Source: a virus
Taxonomy: Duplodnaviria; Heunggongvirae; Uroviricota; Caudoviricetes
IMG/VR virus record: IMGVR_UViG_2698536610_000002
Direction: 5' to 3' (one strand)
DNA length: 57,929 nucleotides
In this document: positions 20,598 through 33,095 of the stretch, piece by piece
Layout of the letters: each line of letters starts with the position of its first letter
Position numbering within the stretch: position 1 is the stretch's first letter
The notes under the pieces: generated by a model
What the model was told of the DNA's origin: nothing
Seen by the model: the letters and a program-made list of their open reading frames with translations, nothing else
The model's database searches: none
Position numbers and translations under genes: made by a program

Positions 20598-21475
20598 AAA
20601 TGTCCACCATTCCCACCCTTCTGGGGCCGGACGGCATGACATCGCTGCGTGAATATGCCGGTTATCACGGCGGTGGCAGCGGATTTGGTGGGCAGTTGCG
20701 GGCGTGGAACCCACCGGGTGAAAGTGTGGATGCAGCCCTGCTGCCCAACTTTACCCGTGGCAATGCCCGCGCAGACGATCTGGTACGCAATAACGGCTAT
20801 GCCGCCAACGCCATCCAGTTGCATCAGGATCATATCGTCGGGTCTTTTTTCCGGCTCAGTCATCGCCCAAGCTGGCGCTATCTGGGCATCGGGGAGGAAG
20901 AAGCCCGTGCCTTTTCCCGCGAGGTTGAAGCGGCATGGAAAGAGTTTGCCGAGGATGACTGCTGCTGCATTGACGTTGAGCGAAAACGCACGTTTACCAT
21001 GATGATTCGGGAAGGTGTGGCCATGCACGCCTTTAACGGTGAACTGTTCGTTCAGGCCACCTGGGATACCAGTCCGTCGCGGCTTTTCCGGACACAGTTC
21101 CGGATGGTCAGCCCGAAGCGCATCAGCAACCCGAACAATACCGGCGACAGCCGGAACTGCCGTGCCGGTGTGCAGATTAATGACAGCGGTGCGGCGCTGG
21201 GATATTACGTCAGCGAGGACGGCTATCCTGGCTGGATGCCGCAGAAATGGACATGGATACCCCGTGAGTTACCCGGCGGGCGCGCCTCGTTCATTCACGT
21301 TTTTGAACCCGTGGAGGACGGGCAGACCCGCGGTGCAAATGTGTTTTACAGCGTGATGGAGCAGATGAAGATGCTCGACACGCTGCAGAACACGCAGCTG
21401 CAGAGCGCCATTGTGAAGGCGATTTATGTCTATCATCTCACCGTAGTTGCCCGCATCGTTCGCCAACTCCACTGA
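20594..21475 (+). pseudogene. B: Portal protein B, N-terminal ~275 codons, truncated by the island insertion
   Basis: Lambda gpB-like to ...LQSAIVKA (about 21423), then 17 unrelated codons and a stop; the rest of B resumes at 32322. Confidence 0.85.
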
Positions 21476-21552
21476 AACCCTTGCTGCGTCTGGAATGTCG
21501 TTTTCCATGCTTTTGATGACCGTTCATCACCCTTCCAGTTTTTCGCGGTTTT

Positions 21553-21604
21553 GTGTATTGCAATGTGTATTGCAAATTGGCGATCGGGATGGGTGTGTAT
21601 TGCA
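21553..21604 (+). repeat. Three direct copies of gtgtattgca next to the left junction (candidate integrase arm-type sites)
   Basis: gtgtattgca at 21553-21562, 21565-21574, 21595-21604, just upstream of the island int start (21624). Confidence 0.5.
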
Positions 21605-21623
21605 AATCTCTTGAGGGCTTTTA

Positions 21624-22865
21624 ATGGCTATTGAAAACAAACTCAGTGACAAACTGTTAAAGAGTCTTGTCGGAAAACGGCAGGACAAACAAAAAACAAT
21701 AGCGGATGGGCGCGGGTTGTCTGTGCGTGTAAGCATGGTTGGGGGGATCAGCTTTGTTTTTTACTATCGTCTTGGTGGCAGGGAATCCCCTCCGGTATGG
21801 CTTACACTTGGTCGCTATCCTGACATGTCTCTTGCAACGGCCAGGCGCATGCGTGATCAGTGCCGTGAATGGCTAGCTGAAAATCTGGACCCCCGCAGGC
21901 AAATAAAACTTGCTGCCGAAAAAACTATGCAACCAGTGACCGTAAGGGATGCGCTGTTTTACTGGTACGACAATCACGCCACAACAGCCAGAAAAGAGCA
22001 TGAATATTTAATAAAACGATTTGAAAAGCATATCTTCCCCTATATCGGTGATATGGCTATAGAACAGTGCAAATTACACACATGGCTTACCGTCTTTGAC
22101 AGGATCAAAAAAAATGCGCCTGTTATGTCTGGTGCAATTTTTCTTGATATCAAACAGGCGTTGCGTTTTTGTCGCGTCAGGCAATACATCGCGTGCGATC
22201 CCTTTGGAGATATTAACGTAAGTTATGTCGGGCGCTCATCCGGTATAAGGGATCGCGTTCTTAATATCAATGAAACCGCTGATGTATGGTCTTATGCTTA
22301 CGGTAATAATTTGCTAACTCTGTCATCAATATATAACCGAAGAATAATGGTTATCTGCCTGGTGTTTGGTTGCCGACAGCAGGAGGCGAGGCTATCCACC
22401 TGGGACGAATGGGATTTAAAAAACTGGGTATGGACAGTCCCAAAAGAGCACAGCAAAAACAAGGAGGCTATAGTAAGGCCTGTTCCTGACGGAATAAAAC
22501 AATGGATCGTTAATCTTTACGCAGAAACAAAAAATCGCGGTTATGTTGTCGGTTGTGCTTTGCAAAGGGCGACAATAACAGGGGCTGCAAACAGAATATG
22601 CAGGCGTCTTGGTCATGATACTAATGGCTTGTGGTGCATACATGATTTCAGGCGCACATTTTCCACTACGCTTAATGATATGGGGGCGGATCCTTATATT
22701 GTCGAACTTCTTTTAGGTCATAAAGTGAAAGGGGTTGCTGGTGTTTACAATAAAAGCAGGCATATAAAGAAAAAACTTGAGGTGCTTAATATGTGGGTTA
22801 ATTACCTTAATACGATAGCAGGATTTAACAACAACGTTATCGAGCTTAATAAAGAGGTGGTGTGA
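21624..22865 (+). CDS. int: P4-type tyrosine integrase
   Basis: 413 aa; N-terminal arm-binding-like region GRGLSVRVSMVGGISFVFYYR; C-terminal HDFRRTF...LLGHK...GVYNKS catalytic motifs. Confidence 0.9.
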   Translation: MAIENKLSDKLLKSLVGKRQDKQKTIADGRGLSVRVSMVGGISFVFYYRLGGRESPPVWLTLGRYPDMSLATARRMRDQCREWLAENLDPRRQIKLAAEKTMQPVTVRDALFYWYDNHATTARKEHEYLIKRFEKHIFPYIGDMAIEQCKLHTWLTVFDRIKKNAPVMSGAIFLDIKQALRFCRVRQYIACDPFGDINVSYVGRSSGIRDRVLNINETADVWSYAYGNNLLTLSSIYNRRIMVICLVFGCRQQEARLSTWDEWDLKNWVWTVPKEHSKNKEAIVRPVPDGIKQWIVNLYAETKNRGYVVGCALQRATITGAANRICRRLGHDTNGLWCIHDFRRTFSTTLNDMGADPYIVELLLGHKVKGVAGVYNKSRHIKKKLEVLNMWVNYLNTIAGFNNNVIELNKEVV

Positions 22866-22866
22866 T

Positions 22867-23124
22867 ATGGCAATTTATTCTCTTGTTGATGAAAACGATT
22901 TGCGCACAATGAAGGACATTGATCGGTTCATTCGTGAAAAAGAGTGCATAGCACTTACCACGCTGGCAAACTCAACACGCTGGAAAATGGAGCAGGCAGG
23001 TAAATTCCCGCGACGTATCAAGATCGGTGAACGTGCTGCAGGGTATCGACTTTCAGAGGTTCAGGCATGGATCCGTGGTGAGTGGCATCCTGGATGGAAA
23101 CCTGGAAAAACAAAACAGCAATAA
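22867..23124 (+). CDS. alpA: AlpA-family transcriptional regulator/excisionase-like protein
   Basis: 85 aa; KFPRRIKIGERAAGYRLSEVQAWIRGEW pattern typical of AlpA. Confidence 0.7.
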   Translation: MAIYSLVDENDLRTMKDIDRFIREKECIALTTLANSTRWKMEQAGKFPRRIKIGERAAGYRLSEVQAWIRGEWHPGWKPGKTKQQ

Positions 23125-23180
23125 CCAGTAAATAATGCCCCTCATCACGAGGGGTTTTTTGTCTATAAGGTAAAAACGCG

Positions 23181-31213: not shown

Positions 31214-31224
31214 CGTAGTACGCT

Positions 31225-31506
31225 ATGACTGAATCCGAAATACTGCGATTAATCCGCCGTGCTTGTGGAATCAGCAAGCAGCATGACGAACAGGCCACGC
31301 AGCCGGACAGCGTGACCGCAGATAATTATGTGCGTGTAGTGGCTGAGGTGATGCGCCGTGACGGTATTGAGCTTAACGGCGTGGATATGCGCAACATACG
31401 AACAAGAGTCCTTGAGTTGCTGGCATATCGTCGCCGTTCTCAACAACGGAGGGAGAGCGCGAAAAATACTTACCAGTGGAAGAAGCCGGAACGATTGCGG
31501 CGGTAA
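31225..31506 (+). CDS. Hypothetical protein
   Basis: 93-aa ORF, Arg-rich C-terminus. Confidence 0.4.
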   Translation: MTESEILRLIRRACGISKQHDEQATQPDSVTADNYVRVVAEVMRRDGIELNGVDMRNIRTRVLELLAYRRRSQQRRESAKNTYQWKKPERLRR

Positions 31507-31521
31507 CTTGCTGATATTCCC

Positions 31522-31879
31522 GATAACGCAAAATTGCGCTGGCTGACTTGTTGCATTGCAAAAAGTTAAGCAGGAAGGCACGGCCTGTAAGATGGGATGC
31601 AGTAAGTAGTTCAAGGCTACCTTGTGCTGGCACGCACAGTTAAGCCGTCGGTGCTGGATATCCCCCACTGGGGGAAAAGCTGGCTACATCCCTCACATCT
31701 GAGGACTGATAACGCGACATTGCGCTGGCTGGCAAAGTGCAAAATTGCACGATGGCCTAACCCATTGATTATTTCGAAAACCTGCAATGCAGGAAATCGG
31801 GGAAGTAAGCCTAAGCTATTAATTGTTTCGAAAACCCCCATTGGGGGATGTCGGGAAAGTAAGACTAACCCATTGATTC
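31522..31879. repeat. Non-coding array of repeated hairpin-containing modules
   Basis: gataacgc(a/g)a(a/c)attgcgctggctg twice (31522, 31708); tandem ~55-bp units tt(a/g)tttcgaaaacc[hairpin]g(a/g)tcggg(g/a)aagtaag(c/a)ctaa at 31770 and 31825; cccattgatt flanks at 31761 and 31870. Confidence 0.55.
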
Positions 31880-32220
31880 TTCCACAATCCTCAATTTGAG
31901 GAGGCCGGAACGTCTACATAGCTGCATCGCCGTAATGATGATTCAGCCCACCAGCCAAATCAGCACAGCAACGACAGAATAGCCCGACACAGAAAAACCA
32001 CGAATATGGGGTTTTTGTTATGACATGGTCATGATGACCACTCATACAAAACAGGTAAAGCCCACCAGCCTGATTAAAGGTTAACCGGAAAAAAGCCAGG
32101 TATCCAATCTCGATATGGGGATCCCTATATCGACATTAACGCCCACTAAAACTGTGCATATATGCATAGAAAAAGCATCCACCAGCTTTATGACGGATGC
32201 CGCTCATCTTATAAATAATC

Positions 32221-32242
32221 GTGTATTGCAGTGTGTATTGCG
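32221..32242 (+). repeat. Two copies of gtgtattgc(a/g) next to the right junction
   Basis: gtgtattgca 32221-32230 and gtgtattgcg 32233-32242, same motif as at the left end. Confidence 0.5.
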
Positions 32243-32321
32243 ACTCCTTTAAACGATAGGTCTGAGCATTCGTAATGTACTGTTTTTAAATTTTATTTTT
32301 TCCTGTCTTTTCATAAAGGCG

Positions 32322-33095
32322 ATGTATGCCGCCACCATTGAGAGTGAGCTGGATACGCAGTCAGCGATGGATTTTATTCTGGGCGCGAACAGTCAGGAGC
32401 AGCGGGAAAGGCTGACCGGCTGGATTGGTGAAATTGCCGCGTATTACGCCGCAGCACCGGTCCGTCTGGGAGGCGCAAAAGTGCCGCACCTGATGCCGGG
32501 GGACTCACTGAACCTGCAGACGGCTCAGGACACGGATAACGGCTACTCCGTGTTTGAGCAGTCACTGTTGCGGTATATCGCTGCCGGGCTGGGTGTCTCG
32601 TATGAGCAGCTTTCCCGGAATTACGCCCAGATGAGCTACTCCACGGCACGGGCCAGTGCGAACGAGTCGTGGGCGTACTTTATGGGGCGGCGAAAATTCG
32701 TCGCATCCCGTCAGGCGAGCCAGATGTTTCTGTGCTGGCTGGAAGAGGCCATCGCTCGCCGCGTGGTGACGTTACCTTCAAAAGCGCGCTTCAGTTTTCA
32801 GGAAGCCCGAAGTGCCTGGGGGAACTGCGACTGGATAGGCTCCGGTCGTATGGCCATCGATGGTCTGAAAGAAGTACAGGAAGCGGTGATGCTGATAGAA
32901 GCCGGACTGAGTACCTACGAGAAAGAGTGCGCAAAACGCGGTGACGACTATCAGGAAATTTTTGCCCAGCAGGTCCGTGAAACGATGGAGCGCCGTGCAG
33001 CCGGTCTTAAACCGCCCGCCTGGGCGGCTGCGGCATTTGAATCCGGACTGCGACAATCAACAGAGGAGGAGAAGAGTGACAGCAGAGCTGCGTAA
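32322..33095 (+). pseudogene. B: Portal protein B, C-terminal 257 codons, separated from the N-terminal part by the island
   Basis: MYAATIESELDTQSAMDFILGANSQEQRERLTGW... continues lambda gpB exactly from the residue after ...SAIVKA. Confidence 0.85.

Follow-up and report, generated by a model that had tools for sequence, protein, structure and literature searches.

A satellite island within the portal gene of a lambdoid prophage matches a published group of helper-embedded elements

The window analysed here, which is the whole 57,929-nucleotide stretch of IMG/VR virus record IMGVR_UViG_2698536610_000002, holds a lambdoid prophage of Escherichia coli whose portal gene, the cognate of lambda B, is interrupted by a 10,900-bp island with the gene content of a phage satellite. 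The window begins at the integrase gene of this prophage (the helper), which adjoins icd in related genomes, and its far end consists of chromosomal genes. The left part of the helper carries exo-bet-gam, the repressor gene and cro, O/P-type replication genes, Q, a porin gene and the lysis genes; to the right follow Nu1-A-W, the split B gene, C-D-E-FI-FII, a complete tail set to J, Lom, a tail fibre gene with that for its assembly protein, and an McrBC-like pair. Helper open reading frames (ORFs) are of normal size throughout and, judged by these sizes rather than by point defects in every gene, the helper looks complete except for its portal gene.

The interruption falls at codon 275/276 of the portal gene, and the two junctions are made up of the following features, all on the plus strand:

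20594..21423, plus strand: helper portal gene, 5' part (lambda B cognate, codons 1-276), from the ORF list
21416..21428, plus strand: attL core, AAGGCGATTTATG, composed of the identity block AAGGCGAT (21416-21423) and then tTATG
32316..32328, plus strand: attR core, AAGGCGATGTATG, composed of the identity block AAGGCGAT (32316-32323) and then gTATG
32324..33095, plus strand: helper portal gene, 3' part, codon 277 to stop, from the ORF list

The ORF at 20594..21475 is portal-like up to ...LQSAIVKA and then enters 17 unrelated codons (IYVYHLTVVARIVRQLH) that end in a stop at 21475, as had been described in an earlier note on this DNA made from the letters alone. The presence of these codons and the stop after codon 276 indicates that attP brings no replacement sequence and that the portal gene is truly disrupted. 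The remainder resumes where the note had placed it, in an ORF at 32322..33095 that opens with MYAATIESELDTQ and reaches the normal portal C-terminus. The boundaries on both sides read AAGGCGAT(T/G)TATG, the short shared core to which the note had drawn attention. This repeat alone is no proof of recombination because the 8-mer AAGGCGAT occurs four times within the window, and we relied instead on the gapless ORF obtained when the gene is rebuilt and on its identity to lambda B. Joining 20594-21423 to 32324-33095 yields a 1,602-nt portal ORF. Strain FREC5 has a near-identical icd prophage whose portal gene is intact; the rebuilt ORF can be aligned to that gene with no gap (1593/1602 nt, 531/534 positions), and codon 275 carries the core in either gene. 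The encoded protein gives an end-to-end match to Pfam Phage_portal_2 (E 1.6e-96). Over its 201 nt, the rebuilt attB matches gene B of phage lambda (J02459 3577-3777) at 100% identity, and the core falls there at 3658-3665. The junctions predicted after excision are ...GTGAAGGCGATGTATGCC... for the restored B gene and ...CATAAAGGCGATTTATGTC... for the island attP. In other genomes the split portal is annotated as a portal pseudogene. Taken from sequence comparison, this evidence supports insertion of the island by site-specific recombination at a short core in the portal gene of the helper prophage; precise excision would restore the gene, which agrees with what the note had expected of the joined halves. 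Production of helper particles would then depend on excision of the island, although portal protein could also come in trans from another lambdoid prophage of the cell.

The earlier note knew of no described satellite that uses the portal gene of its helper as an att site, and on this point it was mistaken. Helper-embedded phage-inducible chromosomal islands (HE-PICIs; PICI, phage-inducible chromosomal island) are satellites that lie inside lambdoid helper prophages, co-oriented with their late genes (Tommasini, Mageeney & Williams, NAR Genom Bioinform 2023, 5:lqad036, PMC10111431), and a portal-gene site group, B:Phage_portal_2:241, was published in that work in 2023. Its entries in the supplementary tables (B_Phage_portal_2_241) give the identity block as 'aaggcgat', members of ~10.9 kb and helpers that include Eco1037.59.icd (PMC10111431). 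The published attL of Eco10269.11.B_Phage_portal_2_241 (163 nt) corresponds to window positions 21360-21522 with zero differences, and its attR (154 nt) to 32265-32418, again with zero differences. Group and island share the gene, the codon, the identity block, the ~10.9 kb size, the orientation, the spacing of the arm motifs, a four-zone gene layout and an icd helper, with no substantive difference. Our reading, which we hold with high though not complete confidence, is that the island is a HE-PICI of site group B:Phage_portal_2:241, a lambda-parasitising tyrosine-integrase satellite in the portal gene of an icd lambdoid prophage, co-oriented with the late operon, and that insertion in the portal gene would hold back the formation of helper heads until the island is excised. 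The class, the integration site and the element family are already known from the 2023 publication, and the window holds another copy.

The integrase gene and the arms of attP, which lie just inside the junctions, comprise:

21552..21574, plus strand: doubled arm motif tgTGTATTGCaatgTGTATTGCa, P' arm of attP, ~130-132 bp downstream of the core
21624..22865, plus strand: tyrosine integrase, 413 aa (Pfam Arm-DNA-bind_3, Phage_int_M and Phage_integrase)
32220..32242, plus strand: doubled arm motif cgTGTATTGCagtgTGTATTGCg, P arm of attP, 78-80 bp upstream of the core

The attP motif specific to HE-PICIs, tgTGTATTGCantgTGTATTGCa, is published as two co-oriented copies located 81 +/- 2 bp upstream and 132 +/- 2 bp downstream of the centre (PMC10111431). 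In this island a doubled TGTATTGC motif is found at roughly the published spacing on both attP arms, the ranges of 78-80 bp and 130-132 bp reflecting the choice of centre. The doubled motif is also present in two further copies of this island and in one C-gene HE-PICI; among the loci compared, it was not found at a yhdJ-adjacent PICI locus, at an rcnR-adjacent locus or at the right end of EcCICFT073, the model Gram-negative cos PICI (Fillol-Salom et al. 2018 ISME J, PMC6092414; 2019 Mol Cell, PMC6739421). A third, single TGTATTGC occurs at 21596-21603, 22 bp past the doubled motif and 20 bp ahead of the int start codon, and may serve as an additional arm site or in the autoregulation of int. 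In pairwise comparison the integrase is 52% identical over its full length to that of the published C:CLP_protease:110 HE-PICI (CP024240.1) and 46% identical to the integrase of the yhdJ-adjacent PICI. All B:241 integrases fall in the HE-PICI clade in the published placement (PMC10111431); the membership of this integrase in the clade rests on that placement of its site group, our own comparison being pairwise. At the DNA level, a match outside the island's own group (70% over 178 bp) was seen with an integrase gene within NZ_CP024240.1 2399902-2406079. That gene follows a ClpP-type head protease gene that is truncated and has a PICI primase gene ahead of it. The arrangement has been published as 'HE-PICI inside a PICI', and here too a doubled TGTATTGC motif occurs just ahead of int.

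To place the island among other genomes, a set of 5,426 complete Escherichia coli genomes was surveyed. Of these, 64 (~1.2%) have the attL junction, 59 have the attR junction and 53 have 80% or more of the island, while int occurs at ≥ 95% identity in 65 genomes and at ≥ 99% in 62. Among the attL matches listed, 60/60 fall within genes that carry the annotation phage portal protein. The 40 best-matching genomes carry the island at 98.9-99.9% identity and come from unrelated hosts with differing prophage backgrounds. The same junction is found in several lambdoid prophages: at icd in this window, at the ybcK/DLP12 site in strain Ch1 and in a prophage of EC28 with different terminase alleles. 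This answers the note's question whether related islands occupy the portal genes of other prophages. This recurrence in different prophages points to a mobile, site-specific element, and for individual cases spread by recombination between similar prophages is possible. Around 3,180 genomes hold the matching portal half without the island. When 50,697 deposited phage genomes were searched, an empty attB was present in 80, lambda included, and the island in none (0/50,697), matches being limited to 66-80 bp of the cos region. The 201-nt attB is 100% identical in wild-type lambda, in HK629/HK630 and in a set of Stx1a-converting phages, all of which are potential targets and helpers of the satellite.

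The remaining genes of the island follow a four-zone PICI layout, namely int-alpA; Bro; primase, iteron origin and single-stranded DNA-binding protein (SSB); and late genes:

22867..23124, plus strand: AlpA-family regulator, 85 aa, probable excision directionality factor (Pfam Phage_AlpA, E 5e-14; the role follows published Gram-negative PICI work)
23137..23155, plus strand: terminator-like G+C-rich hairpin and T-run directly past alpA (consensus scan alone)
23181..23759, plus strand: Bro-N domain protein ('Bro zone'), 192 aa (Pfam Bro-N, E 5e-20)
24093..24398, minus strand: YlcI/YnfO-family protein, 101 aa, the sole clear minus-strand gene (RefSeq annotation of the same island elsewhere; no Pfam match above threshold)
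24589-24786, plus strand: Icd-like cell-division-inhibitor ORF (RefSeq annotation; no significant Pfam match)
24779-24964, 24964-25155 and 25156-25377, plus strand: three small ORFs (no significant Pfam matches)
25395..25694, plus strand: DUF4222 protein, 99 aa (Pfam DUF4222, E 2e-23)
25691..27445, plus strand: primase-helicase replication initiator, 584 aa (Pfam D5_N, DUF5906 and Pox_D5)
27454..27683, no strand: putative replication origin, 42.5% G+C, directly 3' of the primase gene (iterons; position agrees with the published PICI ori)
27732..28046, plus strand: hypothetical protein, longest ORF 104 aa (ORF list; no Pfam match; hypothetical in other genomes)
28043..28465, plus strand: SSB, 140 aa (Pfam SSB, E 5.5e-16)
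28596..29723, plus strand: major capsid homologue, lambda E type (coordinates of the longest ORF; RefSeq start near 28680; Pfam Phage_cap_E, E 4e-41)
29733..30074, plus strand: head decoration homologue, lambda D type, 113 aa (Pfam HDPD, E 4e-15; 40% identical to helper D)
30086..30469, plus strand: second AlpA-family helix-turn-helix protein, 127 aa (Pfam Phage_AlpA, E 1.3e-8)
31225..31506, plus strand: conserved hypothetical protein, 93 aa (76% identical to the last ORF of EcCICFT073)
31755..31878, no strand: 54-bp tandem repeat, 2.3 copies, 77% matches, in the ORF-poor island end 31507-32315

All named island genes except the YlcI-like ORF lie on the plus strand, the same as Nu1-A-W-B-C-D-E. 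No portal, protease/scaffold, large terminase, connector, tail or lysis gene was found in the island, either among the Pfam-scanned ORFs or in the RefSeq annotation of the same island in EC28 and Ch1. The inventory drawn up in the note (integrase, AlpA, Bro-N protein, primase-helicase, iterons, capsid and packaging homologues, and no tail or portal genes) is thus correct, its gene content being confirmed by Pfam. The hairpin at 23137-23155 is terminator-like on both strands and would part int-alpA from the remaining island unless transcription is antiterminated. The putative origin is marked by ten TCTACC/GGTAGA hexamers, in both orientations, within 27462-27679, compared with 18 in the entire 57.9-kb window. 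The capsid homologue is 41% identical to helper gpE and 54% identical to the EcCICFT073 capsid homologue. The second AlpA-family gene is located immediately upstream of the island cos site and small terminase gene (terS), a position at which EcCICFT073 has an unrelated 137-aa ORF, and its product may regulate the packaging module. Each unit of the 54-bp repeat contains a short palindrome, CCTGCAATGCAGG or CCCCCATTGGGGG, and the repeat may function as an array for protein binding or as an RNA; the 0.8-kb right end of the island is partly common to the right end of EcCICFT073 (85-86% over 44-90 bp).

Two further observations concern the right end of the helper. The two ORFs at 52438-55538, ahead of the icd remnant, encode 660 and 373 aa and correspond to the AAA family ATPase and McrC genes of a 97%-identical prophage, which makes them McrBC-like restriction cargo. 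The sole Rfam match at the gathering threshold in the window is IS009 at 51863-52061 (220.9 bits), inside the tail-fibre-assembly ORF 51520-52104.

Packaging signals and small terminase genes are present in both the helper and the island:

17728..17804, plus strand: helper cos region, with an exact cosN, GGGCGGCGACCT, at 17760-17771, upstream of helper Nu1
17949..18494, plus strand: helper small terminase Nu1, 181 aa (Pfam Phage_Nu1, full profile 1-164, E 7e-101)
30494..30570, plus strand: island cos site, with the exact lambda cosN, GGGCGGCGACCT, at 30526-30537; the layout parallels the published PICI cos-rpp
30659..31213, plus strand: island Nu1-type small terminase, 184 aa from a GTG (RefSeq start ATG 30671; Pfam Phage_Nu1 and alignment to helper Nu1)

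The island and helper cos sites are 91% identical over 77 bp; past cosN, at the position of cosB, their sequences are unrelated. A similar division is seen in the small terminases (TerS). The island protein is 37% identical to helper Nu1 over its full length, reaching the C-terminus, with identity concentrated in the C-terminal two-thirds, and it matches Pfam Phage_Nu1 at profile positions 80-162 only. In lambda TerS, an N-terminal winged helix reads cosB and the C-terminal ~40 residues hold the large terminase, TerL (PMC9026076, review). Since the C-terminal half has been kept while the DNA-binding half has diverged, we infer a TerS with private DNA specificity that is able to engage helper gpA. 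It probably binds its own cosB and recruits helper gpA to the lambda-identical cosN of the island.

Redirection of the Rpp type was considered for the gene at this position and rejected. Rpp is a short protein (135-153 aa) that has no TerL-binding tail and is encoded just downstream of the PICI cos (PMC9026076); the island gene encodes 184 aa, and its product aligns with Nu1 to the C-terminus and shows no resemblance to what EcCICFT073 encodes at the rpp position. We raise more tentatively, as an idea that we consider somewhat less probable than its negation, that in the portal-site subgroup a full-length Nu1 homologue with its own cosB could replace helper TerS on gpA and, with the portal broken, could impose a strict order in which excision is followed by supply of portal and then by heads filled preferentially with satellite DNA.

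Comparison with characterised systems helps to delimit what is particular to this element. Its closest experimental counterpart is Eco567.11capE (11capE), a member of the same class with the same size and layout, an icd-integrated lambdoid helper of the same type and a late gene that is restored upon excision. The target of 11capE is the capsid gene E (profile codon 80), whereas that of this island is the portal gene B; 11capE encodes a homologue of the gene that it interrupts, whereas this island has no portal gene; and 11capE is reported to lack terS, whereas this island has a Nu1-type terS beside its own cos. EcCICFT073 resembles the island in its lambdoid helper, int-alpA, primase and origin, E-type capsid (54%), D-type decoration protein, lambda cosN and last ORF (76%). 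It differs in occupying a chromosomal site instead of a site inside the helper, in lacking terS and redirecting packaging via Rpp, a shorter winged helix-turn-helix protein that pairs with helper TerS, where this island has a full-length Nu1 homologue, and in having a right end that is without the TGTATTGC motif found here.

Further sequence features of Gram-negative PICIs are present: int and alpA stand at one end, the origin lies 3' of the initiator gene, the size is 10,900 bp and the late genes are limited to E-type capsid, D-type decoration and Nu1-type genes. Two other satellite types were rejected. A capsid-forming PICI (cf-PICI), which encodes a full head and packaging set and needs its helper for tails alone, would be at odds with the lack of portal, protease, TerL or connector genes among the Pfam-scanned ORFs and the RefSeq annotations. 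P4 shares with the island the same broad integrase clade, an AlpA-like regulator, an Icd-like ORF, primase-helicase replication and the lifestyle of an 11-kb cos satellite that needs the head, tail and terminase of its helper; however, the helper of P4 is P2 rather than lambda, and P4 integrates at a tRNA gene, unlike the island. A P4-like satellite was rejected on the absence of Sid/Psu/Delta-type matches and of a CI/C4-type immunity RNA, there being no Sid-, Psu- or Delta-type capsid-size or transactivation gene among the island Pfam matches (the small ORFs with no Pfam match apart). The arrangement is also reminiscent of regulated gene integrity, as in phage regulatory switches, in that a gene is broken by an element and rebuilt exactly on excision with no replacement sequence in attP. 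It differs in that the interrupted gene belongs to the helper phage and in that the presumed beneficiary is the satellite and not the cell.

From these elements a life cycle can be proposed. In the lysogen, the helper repressor would silence the whole composite, and the portal gene would stay broken. Upon SOS induction, the composite would leave icd and replicate from the helper origin, with the island copied passively, a step shown for 11capE only: mitomycin C causes its composite to leave icd and replicate, and only afterwards is the satellite precisely excised, as followed by quantitative PCR and deep sequencing (PMC10111431). Q-antiterminated late transcription would pass through Nu1-A-W-B' directly into int-alpA. 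Between the early stop in the portal gene and int, a consensus scan picked out nothing resembling a terminator; because late transcription would reach int-alpA with no such site intervening, Int and AlpA are expected to be made late. They would then release the island at AAGGCGAT as a circle that carries attP, leaving the B gene whole. Because no procapsid starts without portal protein, helper head assembly would be delayed until the satellite has been excised.

The excised island would replicate from its iteron origin by means of its own primase-helicase and SSB, and its TerS would bring helper gpA to the island cos. The heads that take up its DNA would use the portal and protease/scaffold of the helper and would receive helper tails; the E- and D-type proteins of the island may be among their components. 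Such heads might be small, holding one 10.9-kb unit, or of lambda size with ~4 units (43.6 kb). EcCICFT073 is reportedly packaged in full-sized heads (PMC6092414; PMC6739421), and the lambda head would not tolerate a composite that surpasses lambda in size by so much (PMC10111431).

Several points weigh against this account. The published induction experiment used the capsid-gene (E) element 11capE and none has used a portal-site element, no helper or satellite virions were recovered from the 11capE work (PMC10111431), and our literature search found no follow-up papers with HE-PICI experiments. Many HE-PICI helpers look truncated (PMC10111431), so some copies may be stranded. Unless Q antitermination overcomes it, the hairpin past alpA could cut the rest of the island off from helper late transcription. 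No C4 or isrK immunity RNA was detected on the island by Rfam, either at the gathering threshold or at E ≤ 1; P4-type immunity RNAs of these kinds (C4, isrK) do occur in some HE-PICIs (PMC10111431). Finally, capsid and decoration deletions of EcCICFT073 were tested for lambda interference and full-sized heads were reported (PMC6092414; PMC6739421).

Other explanations for the split portal gene have to be set against the HE-PICI reading. One is that the island is a stranded relic of a single integration, now immobile and spread vertically or by homologous recombination via the flanking portal sequence, so that the broken portal marks a dead prophage. The truncated look of many HE-PICI helpers and the failure of the model composite to give virions (PMC10111431) fit such a view, lambdoid late regions are similar enough between prophages for the flanks to carry the island by recombination, and one catalogued member has a frameshifted int. 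We nevertheless consider it unlikely: in the window, int and alpA are intact, as are the two att cores and the four half-sites of the arm motifs; int reaches 99% identity or more in 62 genomes and the island 98.9-99.9% in the best 40, in unrelated hosts and different prophages; the helper has a full lambdoid gene set with normal ORF sizes; and the sister element 11capE excises precisely upon induction (PMC10111431). Much the least credible suggestion is that island and prophage were mis-joined during assembly. The window is one sequence and the repeat shared by the junctions measures just 8-13 bp, and the earlier note had named a chimeric assembly among the findings that would refute it, but attL is present in 64 and attR in 59 independently assembled complete genomes, the junction also appears in the published catalogue, and the portal halves fit gaplessly. 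An assembly artefact is ruled out by the recurrence of the junctions in so many complete genomes.

It could also be proposed that the island is a domesticated disarming element, mainly a module for anti-phage interference or defence, from which the host benefits by having a prophage that is unable to make particles. PICIs interfere strongly with lambdoid helpers, disruption of the portal blocks head assembly, and a host protected from particle production could retain the conversion cargo of the helper (the porin, an Iss homologue in related prophages, and the McrBC-like pair). The host would gain little, however, because a broken portal does not prevent lysis. Moreover, the island has kept a complete mobility kit (int, alpA, origin, a cos with exact cosN, and TerS), its Pfam matches include no gene recognisable as cargo or defence, and the authors who described the class hold that the regulation serves the satellite (PMC10111431). 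We therefore regard domestication as very improbable.

What the window adds to the published portal-site HE-PICIs is a well-resolved example that combines a complete-looking icd lambdoid helper with an intact-looking satellite, and the survey supplies a frequency estimate for the junction of ~1.2% of complete E. coli genomes (64/5,426). Replacement of helper TerS on gpA, if true, would be a form of packaging redirection so far not shown for enterobacterial cos PICIs. Wild-type lambda has a perfect attB in gene B (nt 3658-3665), and late-transcription-driven excision, delayed portal supply, TerS swapping and head size could all be tested there.

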